From an uncultured virus (IMG/VR IMGVR_UViG_3300034190_003093) (lineage: Duplodnaviria; Heunggongvirae; Uroviricota; Caudoviricetes), in the IMG/VR virus record IMGVR_UViG_3300034190_003093, positions 117,543 through 137,542 of that record: a DNA stretch of 20,000 nt, one strand, 5' to 3'. The position numbers and the translations under genes are program-made. The notes beneath the pieces were generated by a model that was not told where the DNA came from, did no database searches, and saw nothing but the letters and a program-made list of their open reading frames with translations. This document shows, one piece after another, positions 2,841 through 20,000 of the stretch (positions are counted from its first letter, which is position 1; every line of letters starts with the position of its first letter).

Positions 2841-3706
2841 AAATGAATTTGGTCGGAGCGGGCTACTGGGGAAGTAAACTCCTTGAAAGCTTGAAGCAGT
2901 TCGATGTTGATGCAACAGTAATTGACATACGCAACGGCCAAACCATCAATGACATCAACAACAGTGATCCAGTTATACTAGCAACACCATTGTGGCAGCA
3001 CCACGAGCAAACAGTTGAGCTGGTTAAACGTGGGCACGATGTGTATGTCGAAAAGCCAATGGCCGAAACTGCTGAACAAATTGAAGACATTGCCAGCCAT
3101 CTTAAAGATGATCAATTGATAATGGTAGGTCACATATTCCTGCACCATCCTCAAATACATTTGATTAAAAGCATGCTGGATAACGGCGACATTGGCGACT
3201 TGACTTATATTCGCAGTGAAAGATCAAATTGGGGAATTTATCAGACTAAAACAGATCCAGTGCTGAGTTTAGCAACACATGATATCAGCATTGTGAATTA
3301 TTTCCAAGGCCCAATGACTGTAACCAATGCACAAAGTTGGAACTACAGTAATAATGTAGTACCTGACAGAGTTTGGTTTAGTGGCACACCCGGTTACGAT
3401 ATTGATGTCAGCTGGTATAGTCCAGTGCGTATTCGTCGCACTGTGTTGCTAGGAACCAAAGGACAAATTGTTTGGGACCAAGATGCTAACACTGTTACTG
3501 TTAGCAAACACAGTATAGAAGATCGCAGAAGTATAACCGATGCTTCCCCTAAAGTATATGAATACGATTACGAATATTCGCCCTTGGAATACGAATTAAA
3601 GCATTGGGTAGATTGTGTTGTTAATCGTACTACACCAAGCACAGGCATACGCAATGCATTAGAAGTTGCTAATGTTATTGATTCCCTTAAAGGGATCCGT
3701 ACTTAG
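2837..3706 (+). CDS. Gfo/Idh/MocA family NAD-dependent oxidoreductase (sugar/cyclitol dehydrogenase)
   Basis: VGAGYWG, VYVEKPMA, MVGH, LATHD and PLEYELKHW. Start reassigned to the ATG at 2837, which overlaps the aminotransferase stop (ATGA). Confidence 0.88.
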   Translation: MKMNLVGAGYWGSKLLESLKQFDVDATVIDIRNGQTINDINNSDPVILATPLWQHHEQTVELVKRGHDVYVEKPMAETAEQIEDIASHLKDDQLIMVGHIFLHHPQIHLIKSMLDNGDIGDLTYIRSERSNWGIYQTKTDPVLSLATHDISIVNYFQGPMTVTNAQSWNYSNNVVPDRVWFSGTPGYDIDVSWYSPVRIRRTVLLGTKGQIVWDQDANTVTVSKHSIEDRRSITDASPKVYEYDYEYSPLEYELKHWVDCVVNRTTPSTGIRNALEVANVIDSLKGIRT

Positions 3707-5261: not shown

Positions 5262-6372
5262 GATTAGAATCGACGAAGTTTACGATAATGTTTTTCTGCC
5301 ACGTGCATTGGCACAGACCAACGAAGGCTGCAAAGATAATTGCAACTATCGAGTTGGTTTGCACTGGTTTGACCCCTTTGGTACAACGGATTTTCAAAAC
5401 ATACGTAGTCAACCGCCTGCCAATTGGAGCATGCTGCCAGAACAAACTGGAAATCCCAAAGATAGCACTAGAGTTATATTCTGGGATCAAGAAGTGTTGA
5501 ATAGATTTAGATTTCATAATTTTATCACACCATTTTTAGATATGTTTGAGTCCAACATCAAAAGACTTGTTACCAGTGAATACAATAGCGAAGATGCTCA
5601 GTGGGCTTGTGATACTTATGGACTCACTAGCGACTATTATTTTTTTCATGGATGGGCTGCACTTGACTGGTATCGGGGATATAACAGAACTAGTTTAGCA
5701 CAACCTTTTGCAGAGCGCAAGCCATATAATACATTTCTTTGTCCTAATAATATAATTGGTGGTGAACGTCGACATCGAATTGAACTTTTAAATCAGTTTG
5801 CAAACAGAAATATGTTGGACCGAAATCTTATATCATTTCCAGACACATGCCCATATGAAGGGTTGTCGATTAATGCTATATGCAAAAAGTATAACTTACA
5901 GGTACCAAATGTTCGATTACCTCTTACCATTGACAATGGTAGTGGATACGCTGCACAAAGTCATAGAATTGATTTATGGGAACAAGCAAACAATAGTTTA
6001 ATACAAGTTGTAACAGAAACAGCGTACGACGGTAACAAGCAACACTTAACTGAAAAATCATTTAAGCCTATAGTAATGCAACAGCCGTTTATAATACAGA
6101 GTTGCAAAGGCAGTTTAGAATATTTGCGCCGTTACGGATTTAAAACATTCAGCGAATTCTGGGACGAAAGTTACGACGAGCACGAAGACGACAGACGAAC
6201 TCAGGAAATCGGCAAAGTATTATACGATATTAACAATATGAGCCAAAAAGAAAAAGCCTCTCTGCAAAAGGCTGTAAGTAATACTGTACAACACAACTTC
6301 GACTGGTTTTATAGTGACAAGTTTGAGAACATACTATGGGACGAACTCAACGAAATGACAAATCAATGGTAA
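5260..6372 (+). CDS. Putative glycosyltransferase, GT10 (alpha-1,3-fucosyltransferase)-like C-terminal motif; paralog 1
   Basis: 370-aa ORF with VVTET..HLTEKSFKPIVMQQPFII..GSLEYLRRYGFKTF..DESYD, resembling the GT10 FENS..TEK..P motif. Confidence 0.55.
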   Translation: MIRIDEVYDNVFLPRALAQTNEGCKDNCNYRVGLHWFDPFGTTDFQNIRSQPPANWSMLPEQTGNPKDSTRVIFWDQEVLNRFRFHNFITPFLDMFESNIKRLVTSEYNSEDAQWACDTYGLTSDYYFFHGWAALDWYRGYNRTSLAQPFAERKPYNTFLCPNNIIGGERRHRIELLNQFANRNMLDRNLISFPDTCPYEGLSINAICKKYNLQVPNVRLPLTIDNGSGYAAQSHRIDLWEQANNSLIQVVTETAYDGNKQHLTEKSFKPIVMQQPFIIQSCKGSLEYLRRYGFKTFSEFWDESYDEHEDDRRTQEIGKVLYDINNMSQKEKASLQKAVSNTVQHNFDWFYSDKFENILWDELNEMTNQW

Positions 6373-7541
6373 CATTTTGTGCAGATCAATTTAAAGGCGA
6401 TGTGCCTTTTCCTAACTGTGCTACTTGGGATGCAGCTCCGTACACACCAGAATGGCGCAAATTTAGTTTGAACAGCCCGTTTAGCGAACCAGTGCATTTT
6501 TACGAATATCTAAAACAAGAAGGCATTGACTACACTGTGGTCAAAACTGATGATGCACCCAATGGCAGCATATATCCAATTAGTCTTAGCTTTTTTGATT
6601 TCACTGTGGAATGGTTTGATATTATCCCAAAAAACGTTGTAAAACGTCTCGTAGACAACCAACTAAAAATTTGGTTTTTCTACAGCGAAGGAGATAACCC
6701 TTTTCGCATAAAAAAACATATTAAAAAACAAATGGTTACAGCAGGCATTTCGCCAGAAAACCTGCATTTTACCACCGCAAACACTAAAAGCCATGATCTT
6801 GCACAATTCAGCTACTTATGTGACGACGAGCTGTTATACCGGCTCCGTAATGAAGGTTTAGCAACTGAATTCCATGACCGTCCACGCAGTAAAAATTTTA
6901 CTGCACTTGTGCGCACACACAAATGGTGGCGGGCTAATACAATGACCAGACTGTGGATGAAAGGGTTGCACGAAAAAGGATTCTTTAGTTACAATGCTGA
7001 TATTAGTGTGGGTGATTTACCAGAAGATAATCCAGTCGAAGTTGATAGCTTTGGTAGCCTTAGACATCACACCGAATTCTTTTTAAAGCTATGCCCGTTC
7101 CATGCTGACCTGTTGAGCAGCAACGAACATAATTTGTACCATCACACTGTGGCAGCACATCACGACGATGCATACTTTAATTTTGTAATTGAAACACATT
7201 TAGATGTAGATCAAAGCAATGGTGTGTTCTTAACAGAAAAAACATTTAAACCTATTAAGCATGCACAGCCATTTGTAATTGTTGGTGCCGCTGGTAGTAT
7301 ACAACAGTTACGTGACATGGGATACAAGACATTCGATCATGTGGTTGATCACAGCTATGACAACATCTCTAACAACACCGAGCGCTGGAATGCAGTGTGC
7401 AACGAAATGGAACGAATTGCAAAATCTAAAAAAATACATCAAATGTATATAGATTGTAAAGAAGATTTGCTGCACAATCAACAGTTATTCTTGGCTAGCA
7501 AAGCCAATAGATTAGAAACAATATTAGGAAAATTAAAATGA
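6366..7541 (+). CDS. Putative glycosyltransferase, GT10-like C-terminal motif; paralog 2
   Basis: YFNFVIET..FLTEKTFKPIKHAQPFVIVG..LRDMGYKTF..DHSYD aligns by eye with the upstream ORF. Start reassigned to the ATG at 6366 (7-nt overlap). Confidence 0.55.
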   Translation: MVTFCADQFKGDVPFPNCATWDAAPYTPEWRKFSLNSPFSEPVHFYEYLKQEGIDYTVVKTDDAPNGSIYPISLSFFDFTVEWFDIIPKNVVKRLVDNQLKIWFFYSEGDNPFRIKKHIKKQMVTAGISPENLHFTTANTKSHDLAQFSYLCDDELLYRLRNEGLATEFHDRPRSKNFTALVRTHKWWRANTMTRLWMKGLHEKGFFSYNADISVGDLPEDNPVEVDSFGSLRHHTEFFLKLCPFHADLLSSNEHNLYHHTVAAHHDDAYFNFVIETHLDVDQSNGVFLTEKTFKPIKHAQPFVIVGAAGSIQQLRDMGYKTFDHVVDHSYDNISNNTERWNAVCNEMERIAKSKKIHQMYIDCKEDLLHNQQLFLASKANRLETILGKLK

Positions 7542-8563
7542 GCAAAGTAAGCAGCTATACTAGTTGGCAACCATTGGAAGAAGTTATTGTTGGTCGTGCA
7601 TACACACCTGACTACTTTGACTTTATCGACGATGCACAAGTTCGTAACCAGCTACAACAAATTTTAGCAGAAACAAACGAAGACTTGGACAACTTGCAAA
7701 AGACTTGTGAAGAATATGGTGCTGTTGTAAAACGCCCTAGTTTACCCGATAAAGACAATTTCCAAGGAGGCCAAGTCGCCGACGGTGGCGCACCATTGCC
7801 TCCGCTTACACCACGTGATTGGCAGATTAGTTTAGGTGACAAGCTGTTGCGAGTATTGCCAGTTGACGAATTAAATGATATTTGTGCCGAATACGGAGAT
7901 CAAGTTATTAACCCACACGGTGAAACATTTGATCCTGATTGCATTTTAAATGGTGCTAGTGCTAGTTGCATCGTGCGTGTTGGTCGTGACGTGTTCTTTG
8001 ACAATAGCGATTATTTACAACCGCATCAAACTAAATGGATTGTAGAAAATGCATTAGGCCCAGAATATCGTGTACACGAAGCAATTACAGACGGCCACGG
8101 CGATGCTGTATTTGCCATTCTCAAACCAGGTGTTATTCTTTCAAGCAAGTGGGATGATCAACTCAACTTAGCCGAAGACTTTCCGGGATGGGACGTTTGT
8201 AAAATATGGGATAGTAGTATCTGGGCTGCAATGGAAGTTGGTAAGTTTAAAGAAGAAAACTTCAACGGCTCTTGGTATGTGCAAGGACAAACCCCAACAC
8301 AAGAATTCAGCAACTTTGTAGACCAGTATCTCAGTAAATGGGTTGGCTTTGTCAGCGACACAGTGTTCGATGTTAACTGCCTTGTGTTAGACGAAGAAAA
8401 TGTTGTCTTTAGTGCGTATAATAAAGAAGTATTTGATTATTGCGCCAAGCACAAAATCAATCCTATTATTAGCGAACTGCGTCACAGTTATTTCTGGGAT
8501 GGTGGTATTAGTTGTTGCACACAAGACATTAGGCGCAAAGGTGGATTAGAGAGTTATCTCTAA
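7538..8563 (+). CDS. Amidinotransferase (glycine / inosamine-phosphate amidinotransferase-like, pentein fold)
   Basis: N-terminal SYTSWQPLEEVIVGRA, GAVVKRP, PRD, RVGRD, GHGDAVF (HxD), DVNCLVLDE and C-terminal GGISCCTQDIRR with the nucleophilic Cys. Confidence 0.85.
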   Translation: MSKVSSYTSWQPLEEVIVGRAYTPDYFDFIDDAQVRNQLQQILAETNEDLDNLQKTCEEYGAVVKRPSLPDKDNFQGGQVADGGAPLPPLTPRDWQISLGDKLLRVLPVDELNDICAEYGDQVINPHGETFDPDCILNGASASCIVRVGRDVFFDNSDYLQPHQTKWIVENALGPEYRVHEAITDGHGDAVFAILKPGVILSSKWDDQLNLAEDFPGWDVCKIWDSSIWAAMEVGKFKEENFNGSWYVQGQTPTQEFSNFVDQYLSKWVGFVSDTVFDVNCLVLDEENVVFSAYNKEVFDYCAKHKINPIISELRHSYFWDGGISCCTQDIRRKGGLESYL

Positions 8564-8856
8564 CCCCAGCCCATTATAATTTTAGTATCTTCTGGCACCA
8601 TGTCCAGGCTAAATGGTGGATCAAACACTAGTTGCCTATCTACAGTTTCAATACCTTCAACGCCTTGCACTGCTACGTCGATGTCATTGCAAATTTGATC
8701 TGCAAACGGGCACATCATGCTAGTAAGTGTGTGTTCCACCATGCAATGCGATCCGGTTATTTCAATGTTGTAGATTAATCCCAAATCAAATACATTAATT
8801 GGAACTTCTGGATCGTGCACTTGACGTAGTGCTTCTTTGACATCATCTATCAGCAA
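8560..8856 (-). CDS. SufT/PaaD-like (DUF59) iron-sulfur cluster assembly factor
   Basis: ALRQVHDPEVPINVFDLGLIY, TLTSMMCP and LVFDPPF match the DPE-x-T-x-C pattern of DUF59. TTG start with AGGGG upstream. Confidence 0.9.
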   Translation of the reverse strand: MLIDDVKEALRQVHDPEVPINVFDLGLIYNIEITGSHCMVEHTLTSMMCPFADQICNDIDVAVQGVEGIETVDRQLVFDPPFSLDMVPEDTKIIMGWG

Positions 8857-9688
8857 AATCTTCGGCCCCTAACGGTGAAATTGTATTGCAAAATCTTGTC
8901 CACGAATCATCAGGACCTTCCACTGGCGGCAAGTCAATGTTTTCAAGTCCAGTAACACTTTCATGTATAGCCAGTATACTAAAGATATGTGTGTCGCCCC
9001 AGGTATTTTCAGTGTTGTTGTTGAAATTTTCTGGATTGTAATTTGGGCAAGCATACCACCACATCTTGTATCCGTGCTTGTCAAGCATGTTGTAGTGTTC
9101 GCTGGTGTCAGTTTGCTCACCAGCTTCCATATAGATAATTGGCTTTGTGATTAACATCAAACCAATTGCACCTTTTAGTACATCAATTTCATGTCCCTCG
9201 ACATCAATCTTGACCACGCTAGGTGGCGGCAGTTCCATTAGATAACTGTCCAGTGTGCGACATTCAACAACTGTTCCAGTTTTGCTGCCAACTCTTGCTG
9301 CACCATAATTGCCAGGCACTGTGTCGTCGAACTGCTCAACTGTAATAGTTTCAACATCAGGTGCACCAATGGCTTTGTTAATACAGTGAATATTGGGAGC
9401 CAGTTTGCCTTTGGTATTCAATTTCAATATTGCAAAGTGTTGAGGATTTGCTTCCCAACATACAACTTGTTTTGCCACTTTGGAAAATGCCATAGCATGT
9501 GTTCCAATGTTTGCGCCCACTTCCCACACAACCGATGCTACGTCATTGTGTCTTATTAGATTGGATAACAGATTGATTTCTCTTTGCTGATACTCACCAT
9601 ACTGTGTTAACTGCATGCCAATAACCGAATCGTTTGCATGATATGCAAAATTTTCACTGTAACGTGTTTTTATGTGTTTTAGCTGCAC
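8843..9688 (-). CDS. FkbM family SAM-dependent methyltransferase
   Basis: VWEVGANIGTHA (motif I), EANP, TLDS and KIDVEGHEIDVLKGA. GTG start preceded by GGAG/AAGG. Confidence 0.88.
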   Translation of the reverse strand: MQLKHIKTRYSENFAYHANDSVIGMQLTQYGEYQQREINLLSNLIRHNDVASVVWEVGANIGTHAMAFSKVAKQVVCWEANPQHFAILKLNTKGKLAPNIHCINKAIGAPDVETITVEQFDDTVPGNYGAARVGSKTGTVVECRTLDSYLMELPPPSVVKIDVEGHEIDVLKGAIGLMLITKPIIYMEAGEQTDTSEHYNMLDKHGYKMWWYACPNYNPENFNNNTENTWGDTHIFSILAIHESVTGLENIDLPPVEGPDDSWTRFCNTISPLGAEDFADR

Positions 9689-11217
9689 ACCTTTACTCCA
9701 TATTGTTTTTCAAATCTATCTGCATCTGCTCTGTCATCAACCATTGGTTCGCCACGGATATTCAATGATGTGTTTAGCAACATCGGGCACCCTGTTTCTT
9801 TGTACCAAGCTTCTAATAATTGTCTGATGCCACTACCGTCGCTGGGCACTGTTTGCACTCTTGCTGTACCGTCTACATGTGTAATAGCAGGAAACTGGTC
9901 CGGGTGTTTAACTGGCGCTACTACCTGCATGTAATGTGATGTATTTTGATTTTTTGGCATGTTGAAATAATCGTGTACATGTTCTTCAAGTATCACTGGA
10001 GCAAAAGGACGAAACTTTTGCCGCTTTTTTATTTCATTTACTTTGTCTTTAATTTCGGCACCACGTGGATCAGCAAGTAAACTTCTGTTTCCAAGAGCAC
10101 GTGGGCCAAACTCGGCCTTACCACTTGCCACTCCTACTATCTTTTTAGTCTTTAATTGTTTGATTAATTTCTTTACTGGATACTTGCCAGGAATATCAGT
10201 GCCCAGTAATGCTGTGCGCCAATTGACCTTTTTACCATATGCTAGTGCCGCGGCACCTAAACTACTGCCTGCATCTCCCGGGTTGGGCATGATCCATATG
10301 TTGTCAAAAATATCACCCAGCTTGCTGTTCGCTACACAATTAAGTGCAACACCACCCATGTAAACAAGATTGTTTGAACCTGTTAATTCTTTGGCCTTGT
10401 GCATCACTTGCATAATCAGCTCTTCGCAAAGTTGCTGTCCTGCGGCTGCAATATCCATTTCGTCAACGCCTGCAGAAAACTCCAAGTCTTGCATGCCAAT
10501 GTGCAGGTTTCTTTTAAATTTTGCTGTTGATGTGTTGTCTATTAAATTATCAACCAACGTGTGGTATGCTTTTGATGCATCGCCATATGCTGCCATACCC
10601 ATTGTGATGTATTCTTCATCCATTGGGCGCAAGCCTACACGCTGTGTAACAGCACTATAGTACATGCCGATGCTGTTAGGATACTGCTGACACCAAACAC
10701 GCTTGTACTGGGCCTGTCTGTGCTTCTTATACCCCAAGTAACCAGTGGTAGCATCGTCGTATCTAGCTTTGTAAATGCTGATAGTATCTATTTCGCCGAT
10801 TGCATCAATTACAACAACAGCAGCTTCTTCGTAAGGCGATGTTTGAAATCCACCAGCAGCGTGACTCATGTGATGCCCAACACTGGTTATAACACCTTTG
10901 TGTTCTGACATTATTATTGGAATTGTATTTTTAAGTTCCGACCTTAGTCGCCAGTTACCGCCCCAGGGTTCACCGCTGAGCAATTTACGCAACTGCCGTT
11001 TCCACGGTTTTTCATAGTATACAATTTTATCAAATGGACCGTGTGCAAGAGCTGCCATCTCAAGTTCTAGGCAAATATTATTATCGTTTTTCTGTTTACT
11101 GTAACGCTCACTATGGCCAGCAAATACAATTTCGTCATCATGCAACACAGTTAATGCTGCATCATGAAATCCTGCACTAACTCCGAGTATTCGTTTTAAT
11201 TTAAGTTTTTGTGCCAC
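9679..11217 (-). CDS. O-carbamoyltransferase (NodU/CmcH/TobZ family)
   Basis: GFHDAA, SERYSKQK, HHMSHA, VIDAIGE, GGVALNCVAN, PNPGDAG, EFGPRALGNRS, KKRQKFRPFAP, HVDGTARVQTV and LLNTSLN. Confidence 0.95.
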   Translation of the reverse strand: MAQKLKLKRILGVSAGFHDAALTVLHDDEIVFAGHSERYSKQKNDNNICLELEMAALAHGPFDKIVYYEKPWKRQLRKLLSGEPWGGNWRLRSELKNTIPIIMSEHKGVITSVGHHMSHAAGGFQTSPYEEAAVVVIDAIGEIDTISIYKARYDDATTGYLGYKKHRQAQYKRVWCQQYPNSIGMYYSAVTQRVGLRPMDEEYITMGMAAYGDASKAYHTLVDNLIDNTSTAKFKRNLHIGMQDLEFSAGVDEMDIAAAGQQLCEELIMQVMHKAKELTGSNNLVYMGGVALNCVANSKLGDIFDNIWIMPNPGDAGSSLGAAALAYGKKVNWRTALLGTDIPGKYPVKKLIKQLKTKKIVGVASGKAEFGPRALGNRSLLADPRGAEIKDKVNEIKKRQKFRPFAPVILEEHVHDYFNMPKNQNTSHYMQVVAPVKHPDQFPAITHVDGTARVQTVPSDGSGIRQLLEAWYKETGCPMLLNTSLNIRGEPMVDDRADADRFEKQYGVKVCS

Positions 11218-11873
11218 GCTTCTGCATCCTCTGGTGTATTGATTTCGGTACCATTAAACACACATGGGAATACACCTATATCCCATCCATTTTTTAGCCA
11301 ACGTAGTTGCTCTAGACCTTCTAATCGCTCTTCACGTGTGCTGGTCAAATTAGGATACATTTCTAGTGCATTACGCTTATATCCATAAATGCCTAAGTGC
11401 CAATCGCCATATCCTGTCATGCCTCTACCAAACCACAAACACTTATCAGCTGCTCTTACTAGTTTAACTGAGTTTGGATCGTTCTGCTGTTCTGCTGGCA
11501 TCATAGCGCACATGGTAGTTACTGAATAGTGTTGTAAATGCCATTTAGTTTTTTCAATCATTTCTAAAGTCACATCAGGCATATCACCTTGTACGTTAAT
11601 GAACTGATTATATTTTGCAAAGAAGTCATTCTTAACTGCACCTGCGCATCGTTCTGTGCCATTGGCATAATCTGTTTGATCAACCCAGCAGTTATCAACA
11701 TTGAATAAGTTAAAGATGCGCATGTCATCAGTGAGCACGTATGTTGGTAGGTTAGACGCAACACAAGCGTCATACACACGCTTTATCATTGGAACGCCAT
11801 CTAACATAGCTAATGGTTTACCAGGGTAGCGTGTGCTGTTATACCTAGCTGGTATTAGTATTGCTGTTGTCAT
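11196..11873 (-). CDS. kdsB: 3-deoxy-manno-octulosonate cytidylyltransferase (CMP-Kdo synthetase)
   Basis: IPARYNSTRYPGKPLA, NGTER, INVQGDMP, HLGIYGY, EGLEQLRWL and INTPED. Adjacent to kdsA. Confidence 0.93.
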   Translation of the reverse strand: MTTAILIPARYNSTRYPGKPLAMLDGVPMIKRVYDACVASNLPTYVLTDDMRIFNLFNVDNCWVDQTDYANGTERCAGAVKNDFFAKYNQFINVQGDMPDVTLEMIEKTKWHLQHYSVTTMCAMMPAEQQNDPNSVKLVRAADKCLWFGRGMTGYGDWHLGIYGYKRNALEMYPNLTSTREERLEGLEQLRWLKNGWDIGVFPCVFNGTEINTPEDAEAWHKNLN

Positions 11874-12661
11874 GACCAGGTGTATCCTCTTGCTGCGTCA
11901 CCTACAACTTTGATTTGTTTAACCACATCCTCAAAGTCTTCTAGTTTAAGCATATTAGGTCCGTCACTAGGTGCGTTGTCTGGATCAGGGTGTACTTCTA
12001 AGAAGAAGTTGCTAACACCCATAGCAGCGGCAGCACGAGCAAGACCTGGAACGTAATCGCGATTACCGCCACTAGATTCCCCATTGCCTCCTGGCTTTTG
12101 GACAGCGTGGGTAACATCAAAAACACAAGGTACATCGTAATTGTCAAGCATATACTGGATCCCAGTGAAATCAACAACCAAAGTATTGTAGCCAAAACTT
12201 GTTCCTCTTTCTGTTATCCAAACTTCCTTTGCGCCTTCTGTTTTACTCAATATACCTTTGACATCCCACGGTGCCATAAACTGACCTTTTTTAATATTTA
12301 CAATCTTGTTTGTACGACATGCTGCTCGAATAAGATCTGTTTGTCGACAAAGAAAAGCAGGTATCTGTATTACGTCAACAATATTCGTATAGACATTTTT
12401 AAGATGTCCAATCTGTTCTGTAGTGTGCACGTCTGTTAGTATTTTAACATCAAGTGACTCTTTAATCTGCGCAAAGTCACTTAGAGTTGTAATTAAACCG
12501 GCGCCTCTTTTTCCATTAACACTAGTGCGATTAGCCTTGTCGTAACTTGCTTTAAAGTAATATTCAATGCCATATTTGTTGCACACACGTTTACACTCAC
12601 GTGCAATCTCGCTAGACTGTGCTAACGATTCGTGCTGACAAGGTCCTGCAATTATTTTCAT
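11870..12661 (-). CDS. kdsA: Kdo-8-phosphate synthase, metal-dependent type
   Basis: IAGPC, FKASYDKANRTS, QIPAFLCRQTDL, NIKKGQF, TERGTSFGY, FDVTHAVQ and FLEVHPDP..SDG. Cys/His/Glu/Asp metal ligands are present. Start reassigned to the ATG at 12661 (TAATG overlap with the metK stop). Confidence 0.96.
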   Translation of the reverse strand: MKIIAGPCQHESLAQSSEIARECKRVCNKYGIEYYFKASYDKANRTSVNGKRGAGLITTLSDFAQIKESLDVKILTDVHTTEQIGHLKNVYTNIVDVIQIPAFLCRQTDLIRAACRTNKIVNIKKGQFMAPWDVKGILSKTEGAKEVWITERGTSFGYNTLVVDFTGIQYMLDNYDVPCVFDVTHAVQKPGGNGESSGGNRDYVPGLARAAAAMGVSNFFLEVHPDPDNAPSDGPNMLKLEDFEDVVKQIKVVGDAARGYTWS

Positions 12662-13746
12662 TACCAGCCAATTTTTTCCCACGGCACATCTTTATTGCCA
12701 AAGTGCCCGTATGTACAATTTTCACTGTAGTTAGTATAGTTGAACAAATCAAATCTGTCAATGATTCCTTTTGGACTCATATCAATGTTTTCTTTAATAA
12801 ACTTTTCAATACTGCGATTGTGTCCATTGCTATCAATATACACACTTGTTGGTGCCTTGACACCAATAGCATACGACAACTGAATGTTACACCAGTCTGC
12901 CATATCATCTGCTACTACATTTTTGGCGATCCACCTAGCCATGTATGCAGCACTTCTATCAACCTTTGTGGGATCTTTGCCACTAAAAGCACCGCCGCCG
13001 TGAGGAGCAAACCCGCCATAAGTATCAACGATAATCTTGCGTCCAGTAATGCCAGCGTCACCATCAGGCCCGCCAATAACAAAATTCCCAGTGGGATTAA
13101 TATGCCACGTAGTATTTTCATCAATTAAATCTCCCAAAGCATGATTCGCGGCGCCTCTTGCAATCATTCTTGCTGCTTCAATTTCGCCGGCTGCATGTTG
13201 TGTACTAATAACAATTTGATCTGCACGTTTAGCTATGCCGCCTTCGTACTGTATACTAATCTGTGATTTTGCGTCAGGACCTAATATGTTATCTAATAAT
13301 CGAACTTCTTTCAATTCTTTTAAAACTTCGTGCGCATAGTAGATAGGTGCTGGCAAGTATGCCAAATTATCATTACACGCATATCCAAACATAATACCTT
13401 GATCGCCTGCGCCAAAGTCGTCTGTGCCTAGTGCAATGTCTGCACTTTGACTGTGGATTTCATTGTAAATGTTTAATTTATCCCAATGAAACCCTTCTTG
13501 CTCATAGCCAATTTCTCGAACTTTGTTGCGTACAATCTCTCGAACTTCCTCTTTACTTACGTTGAAGTTTTTTACTTCGCCTGCCAACGTAACGTGGTTG
13601 GTAGTTACAAGTGTTTCAACAGCAACACGAGTTGTTTCGTCACCAGCTTTGAGTCCTGCATCAACTAGCGCATCGGAGATTTGGTCTGCAACCTTGTCTG
13701 GATGTCCTTCGCTAACACTCTCGCTGGTAAAAATATAATTATTCAT
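12661..13746 (-). CDS. metK: S-adenosylmethionine synthetase
   Basis: FTSESVSEGHPDKVADQISD, GAGDQGIMFGYA, INPTGNFVIGGPDGDAGITGRKIIVDTYGG and GGGAFSGKDPTKVDRSAAY. Confidence 0.98.
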   Translation of the reverse strand: MNNYIFTSESVSEGHPDKVADQISDALVDAGLKAGDETTRVAVETLVTTNHVTLAGEVKNFNVSKEEVREIVRNKVREIGYEQEGFHWDKLNIYNEIHSQSADIALGTDDFGAGDQGIMFGYACNDNLAYLPAPIYYAHEVLKELKEVRLLDNILGPDAKSQISIQYEGGIAKRADQIVISTQHAAGEIEAARMIARGAANHALGDLIDENTTWHINPTGNFVIGGPDGDAGITGRKIIVDTYGGFAPHGGGAFSGKDPTKVDRSAAYMARWIAKNVVADDMADWCNIQLSYAIGVKAPTSVYIDSNGHNRSIEKFIKENIDMSPKGIIDRFDLFNYTNYSENCTYGHFGNKDVPWEKIGW

Positions 13747-13865
13747 TTGTAAATAAATGGATCCTTTTTTCTAAGCTCTTTGAGCTTTTTTCTATAACGT
13801 ATTTCAAGTTTAATTTTATTAATTAAACTTTTTGGCCAGCTTAATATTTTTTTGATTGTTTTCAT
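13743..13865 (-). CDS. Small basic 40-aa protein MKTIKKILSWPKSLINKIKLEIRYRKKLKELRKKDPFIYK (absent from the ORF track)
   Basis: Hand-translated. It exactly fills the gap between the 358-aa gene and metK, with ATGA overlaps at both ends (13862-13865 and 13743-13746). Confidence 0.85.
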   Translation of the reverse strand: MKTIKKILSWPKSLINKIKLEIRYRKKLKELRKKDPFIYK

Positions 13866-14938
13866 AGCAGTGATACCTGTAATTCTTTGCTGTCTCGCCA
13901 AGTGTAATCGTACTCAGCATATGCATTTGATGTGCGTATACTATATACATCTAGATGCTGTGTCAATTTACTTAGTATCTGTTCAAAGTTGGTAGTAGAA
14001 AAGCTTGCTTTTAAATCTACTTGTGCCACTTTAGGATGCCCAATTGTTAAACTTTTATCATTGGGGTCAAAATTATTATCTGTTAGCCAGCCACGGAAAC
14101 TGTTGAGTTGGTCTCGCATAAATTTTTGGTGCAGTGTAGGGTTACCCCATTCAATGTCAAAGTCGCCCGCTGCTATAGTTTGCGGCTTTAGTGATGTTGT
14201 AACAAGTTCGCCGATTCGACTGTCTCGGCCCTCATCCTGGAATACTTCCCAATGGTGTTTTCCAACAGCCTTATTGACTCCAACATACACTCCGCCTTGA
14301 TCTTTTGCAATAGTGTTAACACCAAACAGTTCATAATCCTCTTCGCTGAGGGCAAATCGAGGTGCATTTAACCAACACATAATATTACTAGGACGAATCC
14401 ATTCTGGCGCATGCTGTTTTTTACGCAAGCTTAAAATAAGACTTTCAGCTTCGTGGCACAATAAATTTAATTGTCGAATATACCAACGAGTTTCTGCATT
14501 TGCAGCATTATAATGTCTGGACATGTTGCCGCTTTCGCCTTGTGTTTCTTCAAAGTACAAATGTAATTGATTAAACTTTTCGTGGTTAATACCCAGGCTT
14601 TCGCCTTGGTCAGTGCGAGTCTGTTCTGTATCTGGAAGTTGCTCAGGTTCAACGACATTATCTACTGTAAAATGATCGTCAATGTAATAGTCGATGCTAC
14701 TATCATTAATGCCTTTGATTGTTGCATTAATTTGATCAACGAGTAATTGCAAATCACGCTCGCCATCTGGAAATCCAAAAAAGCAATAATTCTTTTCAAG
14801 ATGGTAATTATTATTAAGCAACTCATTGAGTGCCGGAAGCCATTTACGGCTTAAACTATTATCATGTACATCAATGTGCACAGGAAACAATTCTCCTGTA
14901 ACATTATGTCTAAGTTTCATTTCAATTCTATCTAACAT
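13862..14938 (-). CDS. Hypothetical protein with paired His/Glu helical motifs
   Basis: 358-aa ORF overlapping both neighbours. Motifs NQLHLYFEE, QLNLLCHEAES and VGKHHWEVFQDE. No family recognised. Confidence 0.8.
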   Translation of the reverse strand: MLDRIEMKLRHNVTGELFPVHIDVHDNSLSRKWLPALNELLNNNYHLEKNYCFFGFPDGERDLQLLVDQINATIKGINDSSIDYYIDDHFTVDNVVEPEQLPDTEQTRTDQGESLGINHEKFNQLHLYFEETQGESGNMSRHYNAANAETRWYIRQLNLLCHEAESLILSLRKKQHAPEWIRPSNIMCWLNAPRFALSEEDYELFGVNTIAKDQGGVYVGVNKAVGKHHWEVFQDEGRDSRIGELVTTSLKPQTIAAGDFDIEWGNPTLHQKFMRDQLNSFRGWLTDNNFDPNDKSLTIGHPKVAQVDLKASFSTTNFEQILSKLTQHLDVYSIRTSNAYAEYDYTWRDSKELQVSLL

Positions 14939-16244
14939 CGATGCTATCCCACCATTTTAATATATCTGTTTTAGTACTGAGAATATCTCTCATGCATAAA
15001 TTGTTTTTTCGAATACTTTCAAGTTCGAGCATGCGCCTTTTACCTTTTCGCATGCCTTTCCAGTATTCATCCCCATGGTACGTTTCTTCCATGTTAGGTC
15101 TGTTTTTTAATTGCAATAACACGCTACTTAATGCATCACCGAGTTTGTTGTTTGTAATTAGTTCGTCTACTAAACTGTTTAATATTTCACGTGGCAATGC
15201 CAAAGGACTCATGATAATATCTGGCGTAAACGTAAATACCACTTTAGCAAGAATATCAACATCAAGCTCGTCTGCTAGTTTTTGCACATTTGCCACATCC
15301 AGCATTCCAGGTAATGTAAGTGTAAAATCAATGCGCATCTGCCGACGATGTGTTGCTATCTCTAACCCCTGCTTAAAGTTGTCCACCCATTCATTGTATT
15401 TTAGACCTGTGCGTATATATTCGCCTATTGCACCTGTGCCGTCCAAACTTGCACACATTTGCCAATCACGTGTGTGTGCTAGTATATCATGATATAAATT
15501 TATACCTTTGTAATTAACTCTGCTGAGATTGCTATTGTACCTTGCATACAACCGGCGTGCATCACCTAATTCAACAATGCGTTTCATATAACGCCAGTGC
15601 TGTTCGTACATAAGAGGCTCGCCGCCTACCCAGTAAATTTCTTCAACACGGTGTTCTTCAACTGCTTCGCTAAACTCTTGTTCAATTTGCGTGTCTTGGA
15701 ATTTGGTTATTTCTGCACGTACTTCTGGCTTCATCCAGTTGTTTTTAGGATCGGTTAAGTCTGCCATGTCGTGTAGTTTTTGTTCTGATTCCCAACTACT
15801 ACTTAACATATCTCCACACATGCGACATTTAAAATTACACAAGTTCGAGAAACGATAATCCCAACTAATAGGTTTCATTGTGGTGCAGCCAGCGGCGTCG
15901 GTCTTTTCCCAGATATCATTGTATTTGTGCTGGAACATTCTTTCAAAGTAACTACGATATACGTCTGTGTTTAATAGTTGGCTGTTGCACACATCACATT
16001 CGGGCAATGTTTCTCCTGCCATCATACGTCGACGAACACTTTGCATATGGTCGTTGTTCCAGTGCTCGTCAAGGCTCACGGGCTGGTATTCGCCGCTGCC
16101 GGTGTTGGTGTCAATATATTGTGCAAAGCTTTGTGCAGGTTCTCGACTTGCACAGCACATACGTCTTTCAGTTTGCGGACTTAGATAAGTGTGTGTCCAT
16201 GGTGCCATGCACAGGGTAGGTGGCTTGCTGTCAGGTTTTTGCAT
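14928..16244 (-). CDS. Radical SAM protein with N-terminal twitch/SPASM-like Cys domain
   Basis: CNFKCRMC (CxxxCxxC), VGGEP, YNSN and SLDG. N-terminal CMAPW..RMCC..CDVC. Confidence 0.9.
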   Translation of the reverse strand: MQKPDSKPPTLCMAPWTHTYLSPQTERRMCCASREPAQSFAQYIDTNTGSGEYQPVSLDEHWNNDHMQSVRRRMMAGETLPECDVCNSQLLNTDVYRSYFERMFQHKYNDIWEKTDAAGCTTMKPISWDYRFSNLCNFKCRMCGDMLSSSWESEQKLHDMADLTDPKNNWMKPEVRAEITKFQDTQIEQEFSEAVEEHRVEEIYWVGGEPLMYEQHWRYMKRIVELGDARRLYARYNSNLSRVNYKGINLYHDILAHTRDWQMCASLDGTGAIGEYIRTGLKYNEWVDNFKQGLEIATHRRQMRIDFTLTLPGMLDVANVQKLADELDVDILAKVVFTFTPDIIMSPLALPREILNSLVDELITNNKLGDALSSVLLQLKNRPNMEETYHGDEYWKGMRKGKRRMLELESIRKNNLCMRDILSTKTDILKWWDSIDVR

Positions 16245-16647
16245 CAGTAACCCTTTTACGTAAATCGCTACTGCTGAATCTATGATCTCTTTTGTTAAAG
16301 TGTAGTGCTATTCCACGTTTTTGACAAACATTTTTACCACTAAAGTCTTCGTGCTTGTACTCTTCTCCTAGAAAACGCACATCTAATTGAAACAGTTCTA
16401 GTATATCAATAACGTCTTGTTCTGTTTGGTATGGAACAATCTCATCGATTAAATGTAATGCATTTAACTGTACATAACGCTCTACCATTGTTTGCACAGG
16501 CTTGTTCTTAGTGCCCGGTCTATCAATTGTAGGGTCGCTTTGTAGTCCTACAATCAAGTAATCACAGTTTTCTTTTGCTTCACGCAACATTCCAATATGT
16601 CCTGCGTGTAACAAATCAAACGTGCTAAACGTAATACCTTTTCTCAT
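16231..16647 (-). CDS. Cytidylyltransferase, TagD (glycerol-3-phosphate cytidylyltransferase)-like
   Basis: STFDLLHAGH (HxGH), LIVGLQSD, KNKP..ER and RDHRFSSSDLR. Single-domain, 138 aa. Confidence 0.88.
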   Translation of the reverse strand: MRKGITFSTFDLLHAGHIGMLREAKENCDYLIVGLQSDPTIDRPGTKNKPVQTMVERYVQLNALHLIDEIVPYQTEQDVIDILELFQLDVRFLGEEYKHEDFSGKNVCQKRGIALHFNKRDHRFSSSDLRKRVTDAKT

Positions 16648-17219
16648 ATCAATTCCATTTGTTGTGGTACAATCTTATCCAACACAGTAGTAGTAAATAT
16701 TTCAGCGCCTTTGTGCACATTGGCTGCCCATTCAGCACCTTGATCTTCGCCGTCAGCATCGCTGTCAGAAATATACTTGTAGCAGTCAAATGGTGTGTCA
16801 AATTTTTGACAAACCTTTGCTAGTGCATATGCTTCCATTTCGACCACTTGATAGTTGATATGCGGCACACTGAAGCTGTCACCGGTGCCGCATACATACA
16901 AACTATCGTGCTTGGTTTGACAAATAATCATTTGTTCTTCGTCGCCAGGGCTAACATAAAGTGGCAAGTCAAGTGAAGTGCAATCCATGTCTCTTTCGAT
17001 AACTGCACTTATACCCACTAGTTGTCCTTTTATTTCAGCAATGCCGCCTGCTGATCCGTAGTTTATTACTTTACTATAACTAATAGAACTATTATAACAC
17101 AATTCCGTAGTTAATGCAATACTTGCATTAACCTTTCCGACACCGGTTACTAACTTTTTAAAGCCATTGGGTAATGCACCGGGCAGTTCTTCTTCTAATG
17201 CTATTACCACCAGTATCAT
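16644..17219 (-). CDS. 5'-methylthioadenosine/S-adenosylhomocysteine nucleosidase family protein
   Basis: IALEEE, TGVGKVNA, INYGSAGG, TGDSF, VEMEAYALAKVC and KYISDSAD. Confidence 0.87.
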   Translation of the reverse strand: MILVVIALEEELPGALPNGFKKLVTGVGKVNASIALTTELCYNSSISYSKVINYGSAGGIAEIKGQLVGISAVIERDMDCTSLDLPLYVSPGDEEQMIICQTKHDSLYVCGTGDSFSVPHINYQVVEMEAYALAKVCQKFDTPFDCYKYISDSDADGEDQGAEWAANVHKGAEIFTTTVLDKIVPQQMELI

Positions 17220-18418
17220 GCAGGACCTCCATATTCAATTGCATCAGCAAGTTCTTTATGGTGATCACGCAAGTCTTGATTTCTACGCCAATCTACATCT
17301 TTTACTTTCATGCGTAATATGTTACCGTCTAGGCTGACTCCACTGTTAATAAAGTCAATAATATTATTGAATTCTTTTTTATGAAATTCAGTTACATCAG
17401 CATTTTGCAAACGTTTAATTGCTATCTGTTTTGCTGCTTCGGGCAATGTTCCTACACTGTGGTAGTATGCTTCGTGCAACATGTTCCAGTATACAAACTC
17501 AAAGGATCTAGTATCAATCCAATTGGCCAGACCTTCGAGATACATTACATTAAACACATTAACAGTTGCGCAACACTGCAACTGTATGTTGTCTAGTTTA
17601 TCTCGTAGCTGTTCAAAGCGATCCATATTATGGTTAACCAGTTGCCACTCGGCGTTAGCACGTTGGTATTCGAATCGTTCGCCAACATCGTCAATACTAA
17701 ATGCAATTTCTATTAGCTTAAAGTGTTTCCATATATCTTCAGCATGCTCTGGATAGTGAGTACCATTGGTATTATAATGTATTTCAATGTTGCCTGCAAT
17801 GCCTGCGTCTATGCAACGCTGCAACAAGGCAAAGTGTTCTTGTATCATGAATGGTTCGCCACCTGTAAATTCTAAGTAACGAATTTGGTCCATCATTGGA
17901 TCAATTTGGTCCCAAAACTTTTGGTTCTTTCTAGGCCAGGCGCCTTTTTGCAGCATTTCGTAATGAAAGCTGTCTTTACCCTCAAACTTGATTTCTTCAG
18001 TAGCAAACGTGCTACTACTCCAGCTTCCGCAAATACGACATTTAAGGTTACAAATATTGCCTAGTTTAAAATCAATAAACACAAGAGGTTTAGCATCTTT
18101 GCTCCATTCTGTGTCTGTAACAATATGTTTAAGTCGATTTAATGTGTGCATGCGCTTGCTGGTGCGACCACTGCGTTCTTCATTCCAGCATTTTCTGCAT
18201 GTCTGCGGCTTCTTTGCATCCAGAAAGTCTTGTCGCAAATTGTTCATATAGTCACTGTGGTGTATTTCATTTAGTGTGCTGTTGTTGAGATCAAACTTAA
18301 CGCCATCAGCATCTTTGATTTCATCTTCGGCTAAACAACAAGGACGAGCAGTGCCAATCGGTGATGTTTCGATGCTTACCCAAGGCAGCACACAGAATTT
18401 ATCGTGCGGTAATTTCAT
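17216..18418 (-). CDS. Radical SAM protein with N-terminal twitch/SPASM-like Cys domain
   Basis: CNLKCRIC, FTGGEP, YNTNGT and FSIDD. N-terminal CVLPW..RPCC..CRKC. Confidence 0.92.
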   Translation of the reverse strand: MKLPHDKFCVLPWVSIETSPIGTARPCCLAEDEIKDADGVKFDLNNSTLNEIHHSDYMNNLRQDFLDAKKPQTCRKCWNEERSGRTSKRMHTLNRLKHIVTDTEWSKDAKPLVFIDFKLGNICNLKCRICGSWSSSTFATEEIKFEGKDSFHYEMLQKGAWPRKNQKFWDQIDPMMDQIRYLEFTGGEPFMIQEHFALLQRCIDAGIAGNIEIHYNTNGTHYPEHAEDIWKHFKLIEIAFSIDDVGERFEYQRANAEWQLVNHNMDRFEQLRDKLDNIQLQCCATVNVFNVMYLEGLANWIDTRSFEFVYWNMLHEAYYHSVGTLPEAAKQIAIKRLQNADVTEFHKKEFNNIIDFINSGVSLDGNILRMKVKDVDWRRNQDLRDHHKELADAIEYGGPA

Positions 18419-19794
18419 AAATCATACTTTCTAAATTCGTCAATTAACCATGGAAATGTTTTACGCCAATTTGTTTTACGTCTTAAATCCATTTTGTTAA
18501 GGTGATTAAATAGCTCTCTAATCTCAAACACGTTTGGTTCATTGTTTTTACTTTGTTTTGCAATGCCTAGCAAATAGTTTTTACTTGAAATTTCTTCGGG
18601 CGTTCTTTCTGGTTTCAGGGTTAATGCTTTGTCAAAGTCGTCTGAAAAGATATCTCCAAATATATCAATAAACATGAATTCTGGGCTATTTACGCTGTTT
18701 TGATAATGATAAACAGTGCGTACTTTGTTCCATTCTTGTATCTTGTTTAACAAGTCCGGCAATGTTTTCACAGTTAACGGAGTAACAGTTGAACTAATAA
18801 TAAGATTAATCCAATTACACCCTAGTAGATATTCAAAATTTGTTTCCCATGTTGTTAAATTTAAGGGAAAACGCACATACTCTTGTTGTGGTCCCCAGCA
18901 ATCAAGGCTAGCAGTTACTTCAAATTCTCTGAGGCACCCTGTATCTATTAGATGTTTAACACGTTTTGTTACTTTTTTTACATAATCAAGTTTTGCATTT
19001 AGATTTGTAAAGATTTGTAGTTTTAATTCTGGCGCAGGGTATGCTTCAAACAAATCTAAGCATTCTTCCAATTCACGTTGATATAACGGTTCGCCGCCTA
19101 GTATATTAAAGTTGGTCAAGTACTGTCCGTTTACTTTTAACCAATCAAATAGCTTTTGTTTATTAGATTGCAAATTTGGATCTTTGGCAAGAGCCGGAAC
19201 ACCAAATTTAACATTTTCAGCATCCCATAGACTGCTAAATCTTGGACCACAATACAAGCATTTGAGGTTACAAGTATTGTCAAAATATATTTCAAGTATT
19301 CTTGGTGTTACTTGTGTTGCAATGGGGTTGTCAGCTAGTTCAACTGGAGCATGCTGCCCAGGAAAGTCCAAGTTGGTAATCCTGTCGCTTTGGCCGCCTG
19401 CTTTTTCAATATTAATACAATAGTCACAACCTACTTTTGGCCATTTACCTTGCAGCATTTGTTTGCGATCATCAACCTTACTTGGCGTATTATGAAAATC
19501 AAACTTGTCAGTGTCAAACTTATGATGATTGGTTCTATGACAACTAGCAGTTTCGCCGGTGGTTAGAAATACTGTACTCCAATTCCATTTAAGCTGACAT
19601 GCAGTCGGTGTGTTAATTGGAAATGGCTTGTTAACGAGTTTGCTTGTGTGTTTAAACTGCCCAATGTTATATCCGTATACATCAATGCATTCATCTTGTA
19701 CGTGCTGGGGGAGAGACGGAAAGTCCGATTCTTGCTCGCAAACAGGCCAGCTTGGGTCTTTTATATCATTATAAAATTCTATCCAAGTGCTCAT
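18415..19794 (-). CDS. Radical SAM protein with N-terminal twitch-like domain and an extra N-terminal module
   Basis: CNLKCLYC, LGGEP, FTN and SLD. N-terminal CQLKW..ASCH..CDYC, preceded by an extension starting WIEFYNDIKDPSWPVC. Confidence 0.9.
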   Translation of the reverse strand: MSTWIEFYNDIKDPSWPVCEQESDFPSLPQHVQDECIDVYGYNIGQFKHTSKLVNKPFPINTPTACQLKWNWSTVFLTTGETASCHRTNHHKFDTDKFDFHNTPSKVDDRKQMLQGKWPKVGCDYCINIEKAGGQSDRITNLDFPGQHAPVELADNPIATQVTPRILEIYFDNTCNLKCLYCGPRFSSLWDAENVKFGVPALAKDPNLQSNKQKLFDWLKVNGQYLTNFNILGGEPLYQRELEECLDLFEAYPAPELKLQIFTNLNAKLDYVKKVTKRVKHLIDTGCLREFEVTASLDCWGPQQEYVRFPLNLTTWETNFEYLLGCNWINLIISSTVTPLTVKTLPDLLNKIQEWNKVRTVYHYQNSVNSPEFMFIDIFGDIFSDDFDKALTLKPERTPEEISSKNYLLGIAKQSKNNEPNVFEIRELFNHLNKMDLRRKTNWRKTFPWLIDEFRKYDL

Positions 19795-20000
19795 TTCAGT
19801 GATGCCAACTCGGGTATTGCATCCAGTACATTTTCTTTTCGTATACCGTCAAGTTGATTGGTTTTTTGCCAGAACTTGCTAATCAGACGAGTGTTGTCTG
19901 TACTATCCATATACTGTAGTGCACTTTCAAATCCCACTGTAGCCCTGTTTAACTGATCCAATGGACGCAACCATTCTAAGTGTGCTTCGTACTTTTCTTT
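19791..20000 (-). CDS. C-terminal 69 aa of a gene running off the window, probably another radical SAM paralog
   Basis: Hand translation: KEKYEAHLEWLRPLDQLNRATVGFESALQYMDSTDNTRLISKFWQKTNQLDGIRKENVLDAIPELASLK*. The tail LDGIRKE..PEL matches the paralog tails MDLRRKT..PWL and VDWRRNQ..KEL. ATGA overlap with the next gene. Confidence 0.7.
   Translation of the reverse strand, partial: KEKYEAHLEWLRPLDQLNRATVGFESALQYMDSTDNTRLISKFWQKTNQLDGIRKENVLDAIPELASLK

Follow-up and report, generated by a model that had tools for sequence, protein, structure and literature searches.

The stretch of DNA analysed here (hereafter the window, 20,000 bases) is the terminal 20 kb (bases 117543-137542) of the linear IMG/VR record IMGVR_UViG_3300034190_003093 (G000; 137,542 bases, about 34% complete according to CheckV) and ends with that record. 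Between positions 8560 and 20000 its minus strand carries a chain of genes for N-twitch radical S-adenosylmethionine (SAM) enzymes, abbreviated rSAM, in which genes for a SAM synthetase (MetK), a nucleosidase and a DUF59 protein (together, the support genes) are interleaved with sugar-type genes, the latter accounting for about half of the chain. These three genes were found to occupy three separate junctions of a widespread gene island, and to keep those places in one branch of giant phages.

Open reading frames (ORFs) of the window were called and subjected to family scans (Pfam, NCBIfam), and all coordinates are given as window positions. The rSAM and support genes are the following:

19791..20000, minus strand, fourth N-twitch rSAM copy, C-terminal 69 aa, cut by the contig end (NF033640 model positions 331-397, E 1.7e-6, 27.4 bits)
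18415..19794, minus strand, N-twitch rSAM rSAM_C, 459 aa (NF033640 221.8 bits, cut-off 170)
17216..18418, minus strand, N-twitch rSAM rSAM_B, 400 aa (NF033640 334.8 bits; SPASM/twitch region at residues 9-78, rSAM core at residues 119-277)
16644..17219, minus strand, small protein resembling 5'-methylthioadenosine/S-adenosylhomocysteine (MTA/SAH) nucleosidases, 191 aa, lineage-specific insertion 1 (PF01048, PNP_UDP_1, 46.3 bits, cut-off 25.1)
14928..16244, minus strand, N-twitch rSAM rSAM_A, 438 aa (NF033640 290.4 bits)
12661..13746, minus strand, MetK, SAM synthetase, lineage-specific insertion 2 (TIGR01034 417.2 bits, cut-off 309.4)
8560..8856, minus strand, DUF59 / SufT-PaaD-like iron-sulfur (Fe-S) assembly protein, 98 aa, lineage-specific insertion 3 (PF01883 59.6 bits, cut-off 23.5)

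Adjoining genes of the chain (8560-20000) overlap by 4-22 bases, with one exception, a 115-base gap between MetK and a gene for a 358-aa protein. An earlier note on this DNA had described a gap-free minus-strand chain; the strand and the tight packing were borne out, the absence of gaps was not. Its reading of three complete rSAM genes and a probable fourth was upheld, as was the presence of metK, the nucleosidase and the DUF59 gene at their places in the chain. All three complete N-twitch genes exceeded the curated cut-off of 170 bits for NF033640 (N_Twi_rSAM), and an alignment of four N-twitch copies showed an invariant CxxxCxxC motif (C123, C127, C130) together with invariant N-terminal cysteines (C9, C74, C77). 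Matches to the SPASM family PF13186 were obtained for two of the copies, at residues 9-78 and 12-87. The 358-aa gene was considered as the fourth rSAM and ruled out, because its product has no CxxxCxxC motif; this leaves the truncated ORF at the edge of the window as the only candidate for the fourth. Close kin have additional rSAM copies upstream. A fifth N-twitch rSAM of G000 was located outside the window (L012:11112-12329).

All three MetK domains (PF00438, PF02772 and PF02773) scored above cut-off. When the nucleosidase was aligned to solved MTA/SAH nucleosidases (MTANs), the motifs GxGKVNA, GSAGG, VEMEA and SD were found to be retained, as was a stretch EEE near the N terminus, and some of these residues are probably catalytic; the protein has 191 aa as against 230-250 aa for the solved chains. 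The translation of the DUF59 gene retains the DPE and T..CP motifs of that family.

A promoter and terminator scan of positions 8000-20000 gave counts not above those of shuffles (38 against 31.8 +/- 5.8 and 13 against 9.5 +/- 3.1, respectively) and is uninformative on operon structure. Much of the island is represented in contigs from three metatranscriptome libraries, which are 90-99% alike and span several gene borders; as these contigs are assembled and such libraries can hold DNA, neither transcription nor co-transcription follows from them. Cover of the KdsB part was low or missing in two of the RNA runs and carries no evidential weight.

Distribution of the core island and of the support genes

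Viral contigs were searched with an alignment of the four N-twitch paralogs, which returned at least 663 stretches with relatives. From these, 79 loci were kept, and a census of them was taken by tblastn with the window proteins within 10 kb of the array. The rSAM copies number five or six in 62 of the 79 loci, and the carbamoyltransferase is present in 56. Besides the rSAM genes, the core island of the window consists of:

13862..14938, minus strand, conserved 358-aa protein (in 59 of the 79 related loci)
9679..11217, minus strand, NodU/TobZ-type carbamoyltransferase (PF16861 176.7 bits, PF02543 126.3 bits)
7538..8563, plus strand, amidinotransferase, 341 aa, lying beyond the part of the window covered by the earlier note (profile against StrB1, 1bwd, E 4.8e-63)
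6336..7541, plus strand, conserved 401-aa protein, paralog of the 370-aa protein (in 52 of 79 loci; BLASTP paralogy E 1e-12)
5260..6372, plus strand, conserved 370-aa protein, paralog of the 401-aa protein (in 53 of 79 loci)
3687..5261, minus strand, conserved 524-aa protein with a C-terminal GT-A-type nucleotide-sugar transferase fold (in 59 of 79 loci; AlphaFold2 pLDDT 89)

A complete 337-kb relative has a plain layout of five rSAM genes, the 358-aa protein, the carbamoyltransferase, a small ORF, the amidinotransferase, the two paralogs, the GT-A-fold protein and a DegT aminotransferase, that is, the core order without the three support-gene insertions. Compared with this layout, insertions in the window separate genes at three junctions: the nucleosidase and a small cytidylyltransferase part two rSAM genes, MetK, KdsA and KdsB part the 358-aa gene from the carbamoyltransferase, and an FkbM methyltransferase with the DUF59 gene parts the carbamoyltransferase from the amidinotransferase.

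The corresponding search of cellular sequences gave 294 stretches, of which 80 loci were kept. Most are in metagenome-assembled genomes (MAGs) labelled Bdellovibrionota, at about 30% identity and with arrays of up to nine copies; a carbamoyltransferase is nearby in 15 and an amidinotransferase in five. The core island is widespread in giant phages and Bdellovibrio-type bacteria. Four loci filed as cellular (L092 and L093, on 148- and 183-kb contigs under a Haliscomenobacter MAG, together with L094 and L095) hold a phage-type island with the same partners at 39-62% identity; they resemble giant-phage contigs that ended up in MAG bins, or else hint at the host. On a 917-kb contig of a Bdellovibrionia MAG (L108), nine N-twitch-type rSAM genes lie within 21 kb along with two genes of the Asp/Arg beta-hydroxylase family and several unknowns, with nothing recognisable as a sugar gene. 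The substrate of the cellular arrays may differ from that of the phage island.

The nucleosidase belongs to a clade of 18 viral loci (74-99% identity, about 11 distinct lineages, contigs up to 328 kb). Its gene immediately follows the rSAM_B ortholog in all 18, within an array of 5-8 copies, and the clade was seen nowhere else. MetK stands behind the 358-aa gene in 14 of the 15 clade loci with sufficient flank, a single 316-kb contig being without it, and DUF59 stands behind the carbamoyltransferase in 10 of 10 assessable loci. The small cytidylyltransferase is present in 5/18 of the clade loci, and the nearest kin (96-98% MetK identity) are without KdsA, KdsB and FkbM. Since these three are missing from the nearest kin, and since DUF59 is joined to the carbamoyltransferase in contigs of relatives from three RNA libraries, the trio of support genes is the stable feature of the branch and the sugar-type additions are recent. 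That there are three separate insertion points, all occupied by SAM or Fe-S housekeeping genes, and that synteny is kept, argues for a functional tie. For this branch of phages, a link between the three support genes and the island is very probable. Records selected by MetK similarity alone are rich in N-twitch genes: 28 of 39 MetK-bearing records have an N-twitch match, and all seven of those of at least 99 kb have at least 9 such matches.

Proposed role of the support genes and rival explanations

We see about an even chance that the chain represents a lineage-specific form of an N-twitch rSAM tailoring island that is widespread in giant phages, and that it is equipped with an optional support kit. 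Its core (five to six N-twitch rSAMs, the carbamoyltransferase, the amidinotransferase, the GT-A-fold protein, the two paralogs and the 358-aa protein) would build or edit an unusual molecule, with the N-twitch enzymes performing the unusual chemical steps. That molecule is most likely of a sugar type, as judged from the GT-A-type fold, the nearness of the amidinotransferase to StrB1 (an aminocyclitol enzyme), the NodU/TobZ type of the carbamoyltransferase and the flanking amino-sugar genes. In one branch, the nucleosidase, MetK and DUF59 genes would have been inserted at the three junctions and then retained. Their roles are most likely clean-up, supply and cluster loading: MetK would replenish the SAM used in each rSAM turnover and methyl transfer, the nucleosidase would clear the inhibitory by-products 5'-deoxyadenosine and SAH, and the DUF59 protein would help to load the two [4Fe-4S] clusters of each rSAM. 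It is established that rSAM enzymes are inhibited by 5'-deoxyadenosine, which MTA/SAH nucleosidase accepts as a substrate. G000 itself would then have added KdsA, KdsB and FkbM on top of the kit, and other genes found elsewhere on it (for SufE, an A-type carrier, a ferredoxin, a ferritin and a superoxide dismutase) would reflect an investment in Fe-S chemistry across the genome, such as Nishimura et al. (PMC5332604) proposed for marine phages rich in rSAM genes.

A number of findings weigh against so close a connection between support genes and array. Of the 79 viral loci, only 1 has MetK, 3 have the nucleosidase and 2 have DUF59 within 10 kb of the array. In whole records (n = 49, comprising 46 contigs of at least 50 kb and 3 close kin, out of the 79), the counts were 5, 7 and 3. 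Nearby the cellular arrays they were 0, 0 and 1 of 80. Of three records at least 99% complete, two (337 and 344 kb) are without any of the support genes. In G017, a complete genome of 347 kb, MetK lies about 40 kb and the nucleosidase about 30 kb from the array, and MetK adjoins genes for a sugar C-methyltransferase, a UDP-glucose dehydrogenase and an epimerase instead of rSAM genes. Among 80 loci of viral MetK relatives (77-98% identity), 55 are without an N-twitch rSAM within 10 kb, and on arrayless contigs MetK is accompanied by KdsA (10 loci), KdsB (8) and the small cytidylyltransferase (15). Plain inheritance could explain the synteny of the clade. As to the proteins themselves, the nucleosidase falls below all NCBIfam equivalog cut-offs (NF004168 81.5 against 129; NF004079 51.5 against 169; TIGR01704 42 against 73.8). 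The DUF59 protein falls below those of the SufT/SUF-associated equivalogs (TIGR02945 95.4 against 143.4; TIGR03406 75 against 202.6) and scores similarly with the PaaD model (85 bits, cut-off 180).

The earlier note had held that the three genes are a dedicated support kit and not independent auxiliary metabolic genes (AMGs), and had proposed following their co-occurrence and synteny with N-twitch arrays. These were found in one subclade (18/18, 14/15 and 10/10 loci) and are rare across array-bearing phages, and MetK is often placed apart from arrays, an outcome that the note itself had listed as refuting and that speaks against a dedicated kit as a general rule. The interpretation given in the note is partly supported. 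The support genes are an optional, lineage-specific addition, probably a booster, and neither a requirement of the island nor its general partner.

There is also a hint of a dose relation between N-twitch copy number and support genes. Near-complete genomes that have both MetK and a PNP_UDP_1 protein carry 16 (G017) and 14 (G053) N-twitch copies at E<=1e-40, and those with neither carry 7 (G006) and 9 (G008). This contrast is suggestive only, and it also tells against too firm a reading that it consists of four genomes from related lineages in two differently ascertained sets.

A different grouping was observed for MetK at eight loci (L191-L193, L201, L215, L216, L228 and L230), where it adjoins KdsA and KdsB and often the small cytidylyltransferase; an N-twitch rSAM within 10 kb is absent from six of these, and one is present in each of L215 and L216. 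MetK and KDO-type (3-deoxy-D-manno-octulosonate) sugar genes may travel as a cassette.

The three genes could instead be general AMGs that boost the host SAM cycle and Fe-S supply for all SAM and Fe-S enzymes of the phage, DNA and sugar methyltransferases included, their place in the island being a recombination accident at permissive junctions that was later inherited. The 55 of 80 MetK relatives outside arrays fit this, as does G017, where the nucleosidase lies 10 kb further on from MetK and neither is in the array. G000 has other users of SAM (methyltransferases, a QueE-like rSAM and a B12-binding rSAM), its Fe-S genes are dispersed, and the junctions are variable, in that FkbM, KdsA/B and the cytidylyltransferase come and go. 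The same gene set from Lake Baikal is interpreted as a SAM-cycle boost in the available text of Coutinho et al. (10.1101/2020.04.02.019802). A recombination accident accounts poorly for a cofactor-related gene at each of three different junctions of one island, for an arrangement that persists across about 11 lineages with identities as low as 74%, and for a nucleosidase clade that occurs only behind rSAM_B (18/18). We consider the general-AMG explanation somewhat unlikely.

The constant position of the nucleosidase, directly between two rSAM genes at 18 of 18 loci, could instead mean that it is a pathway enzyme. A flanking rSAM would add the 5'-deoxyadenosyl radical to the substrate, the nucleosidase would cut off adenine to leave a ribose-extended higher-carbon sugar, and MetK would supply SAM as a stoichiometric carbon donor. 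There are precedents for an rSAM working with a nucleosidase that cuts the adenosylated product, namely MqnE/MqnB of the futalosine route and HpnH/HpnG of the hopanoid side chain. Besides the MTAN models, the protein of the window has sub-cut-off matches to futalosine hydrolase (TIGR03664, E 5e-9) and HpnG (E 0.003), and it is shorter than canonical MTANs. Its best matches are nevertheless MTA/SAH nucleosidases and a generic 'nucleosidase' model; 76 of the 79 loci have no nucleosidase nearby, so it is no core step; and the flanking rSAMs are not distinguishable from their orthologs in nucleosidase-free islands. This makes a pathway role quite unlikely. An rSAM of the island that adenosylates a sugar-type acceptor, with adenine stripped by the nucleosidase and SAM as a building block, would amount to a new, phage-encoded route to long-chain sugars, and is to be regarded as distinctly improbable. 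MetK might also have nothing to do with radical chemistry and counter a SAM shortage imposed by the host or a competitor, or support phage DNA methylation against restriction. SAM is linked to restriction and defence, and MetK was found in 137 cultured phage records, many of them unrelated and all but one at <60% identity. Speaking against this, the family scans revealed no defence or anti-defence gene beside MetK in the window, MetK is fixed in the island with the nucleosidase and DUF59 in the clade, and the 7/7 MetK-bearing records of at least 99 kb are rich in N-twitch rSAMs. A defence role appears very unlikely indeed.

If the island with an optional kit is the correct reading, its interest lies in the cost of rSAM enzymes, each turnover of which spends SAM, releases an inhibitor and relies on fragile iron-sulfur clusters. 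A virus with six or more rSAMs and genes for supply, clean-up and loading would be a natural experiment on the limits of radical chemistry in an infected cell. The insertions also suggest that the island, common in giant phages and predatory bacteria, encodes a real pathway in heavy use, and MetK, nucleosidase and DUF59 are an obvious helper cassette for the laboratory expression of N-twitch enzymes. The part of higher interest is the product of the island and the chemistry of its N-twitch enzymes.

Sugar-type genes of the window and the source phage

The remaining sugar-type genes in and beside the chain are:

16231..16647, minus strand, cytidylyl/adenylyltransferase-like protein, 138 aa (PF01467 45.8 bits; RfaE domain II and TagD-like matches below cut-off)
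11870..12682, minus strand, KdsA, KDO-8-phosphate synthase (NF003543 347.3 bits, cut-off 242; TIGR01362 332.7 bits, cut-off 314)
11196..11873, minus strand, KdsB-like cytidylyltransferase, CMP-KDO synthetase-like (PF02348 84.2 bits, cut-off 22.6)
8843..9688, minus strand, FkbM-family SAM methyltransferase, variable insertion (TIGR01444 91 bits)
709..3706, plus strand, NDP-sugar 4,6-dehydratase/epimerase, DegT aminotransferase and GFO/IDH/MocA oxidoreductase, flank of the island (PF01370; PF01041, 345 bits; PF01408)

The earlier note had named the FkbM protein of the chain and left KdsA, the KdsB-like protein, the carbamoyltransferase and the small cytidylyltransferase out of its account. The KdsB-like protein is below equivalog and subfamily cut-offs (best NF003952, 165.1 bits against 193) and may activate another 3-deoxy or nonulosonic sugar. 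KdsA and KdsB were found in 0/79 array-related loci and 0/18 nucleosidase-clade loci, so that among the compared phages G000 alone has them in the island. FkbM was present in 3/79 and 3/18 of the same loci. In relatives' contigs from three RNA libraries, position 8837 is joined to 9679 and FkbM is replaced by 12-16 letters, so that DUF59 leads straight to the carbamoyltransferase; FkbM is therefore a presence/absence variant within the population.

The profile of the amidinotransferase also matched SxtG (6u1r, E 7.7e-54) and AGAT (about 1e-52), and its C-terminal block aligns to the Cys-bearing motif of StrB1. It occurs in 22 of the 79 loci, with 71-81% identity in 20 of the 22, as against 35-60% for neighbouring genes. 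Three amidinotransferase-family paralogs (phrog_25854) were observed on G000 (L007:829-1749, L012:1405-2421 and window 7538-8563). In 19 of the 79 loci there is a DegT homolog within 10 kb, and flanking amino-sugar genes were counted in 12-19 of them. For the 524-aa protein, Foldseek returned GT-A glycosyltransferases at E 3e-5 to 1e-3, and VIA gave Z 9-10.3 over residues ~290-435. The 401-aa and 370-aa paralogs could possibly be GT10-like sugar transferases, a lead drawn from a shared motif and from their nearest named atlas clusters (Glyco_transf_10 at 0.78-0.79); no Pfam GT10 match was found in 30 members, and a profile search of PDB gave nothing useful. The 358-aa protein was modelled by AlphaFold2 with pLDDT 88. 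Cyclophilin-like barrels were obtained VIA-wide only at a middling Z of 7-8.8, Foldseek against PDB gave no match at E<=0.001, a profile search against PDB sequences gave nothing, and atlas scores were only about 0.81.

In all, 173 ORFs were called on G000 and scanned against protein family libraries. The phage genes recognised include a baseplate-wedge/fibre-type protein (PHROG), a family B DNA polymerase and a clamp-loader-like ATPase; further genes encode PhoH, ClpP, a ClpB-type ATPase, DnaJ, and a QueE-like rSAM with FolE and QueD. The polymerase is nearest, among cultured giant phages, to those of Sinorhizobium phage Phosso (52%) and Agrobacterium phage Atu_ph07 (46%), which infect Alphaproteobacteria, and complete relatives of G000 are 337-347 kb long with terminal repeats. 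The source of G000 is an uncultured marine jumbo phage, in agreement with the phage origin proposed earlier: the contig is a virus record with PHROG baseplate/fibre matches and a family B polymerase. A cellular origin of the window was considered and is ruled out by the viral record type, the phage-gene matches and the polymerase kinship. A megablast search of the window against cultured phages gave no match, and rSAM_B matched only 4 cultured phage records at 18-28% identity, leaving no isolate usable as a model.

Several other regions of G000 are described for completeness. At 81-88 kb, GTP cyclohydrolase I, a QueD/PTPS-type protein and a QueE-like rSAM (phrog_2076, E 2e-53) are clustered (L011:3134-3832, 5930-6406, 9176-10111), which suggests a 7-deazaguanine DNA-modification pathway. 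Dispersed Fe-S and redox genes were observed at 10-31 kb (L007:9900-12193; L008:8326-8646, 10903-11466, 12098-12382) and at L010:8913-9356; they encode serine hydroxymethyltransferase, SufE, DoxX, a cytochrome c, a ferredoxin, an Fe/Mn superoxide dismutase, an IscA-type Fe-S carrier (Fe-S_biosyn) and a ferritin-like protein. A second tailoring spot (L011:15902-19661 with L012:40-756) holds a B12-binding rSAM, a second carbamoyltransferase and a phosphomannomutase. Genes for a DUF1127 protein, two DUF6552 proteins and a TctA transporter subunit (L007:12610-12864, 13725-13982, 16787-17011; L008:5-1543) belong to families that we take to be typical of Alphaproteobacteria, which agrees with the rhizobial phages being the nearest isolates by polymerase. 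At L008:12924-19931, a gene for an 837-aa fibre/baseplate-connector-like protein precedes one for a 1497-aa protein in which Ig-like (He_PIG) and class-3 lipase domains were recognised; this may be a fibre with an enzymatic tip.

Comparison with known systems

Among cellular systems, MqnE/MqnB and HpnH/HpnG share with the window a nucleosidase of the PNP_UDP_1 family encoded with an rSAM; they differ in that the best matches of the window's protein are MTA/SAH nucleosidases.

The ingredients of the chain are partly in print already, for phage Fe-S genes with rSAM arrays in 2017 and for a phage population with rSAM, MetK and MTA/SAH nucleosidase in 2020. Nishimura et al. (2017, PMC5332604) described a marine T4-like genome (183 kb) with an A-type Fe-S carrier, 12 radical SAM genes and a PaaD (DUF59-type) gene, and suggested that viral Fe-S assembly genes serve virus-encoded Fe-S proteins. 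Fe-S/DUF59-type genes and many rSAMs are thus common to that genome and the window, whereas the available portion of that paper makes no mention of MetK, a nucleosidase or synteny within the array. Coutinho et al. (2020, 10.1101/2020.04.02.019802) reported that VP_139 from Lake Baikal encodes radical SAM proteins, methionine adenosyltransferase, MTA/SAH nucleosidase, three methyltransferases and a glycerol-3-phosphate cytidylyltransferase, and interpreted the set as a boost of the host SAM cycle and of pyrroloquinoline quinone (PQQ) synthesis in methylotrophs. This accessory set is nearly that of the window; the accessible text describes neither a layout nor an array and proposes no relief of rSAM product inhibition. 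In Zaragoza-Solas et al. (2020, PMC7029224), rSAM cassettes are a variable part of the pelagimyophage host-recognition cluster near tail-fibre genes. The available portion of that paper has no description at the enzyme level, no support genes and no N-twitch assignment.

The earlier statement that no characterised system has this layout needs qualification in view of the similar gene sets in PMC5332604 and, in the parts available, in 10.1101/2020.04.02.019802. Our literature searches found no paper on three such genes fixed at three junctions of an N-twitch array, nor on relief of 5'-deoxyadenosine inhibition by a phage. The closest known arrangement is the plain giant-phage N-twitch island, with which the window shares the core genes and their order; the subclade of the window adds the nucleosidase, MetK and DUF59 at three junctions, and KdsA and KdsB are added in G000 only.

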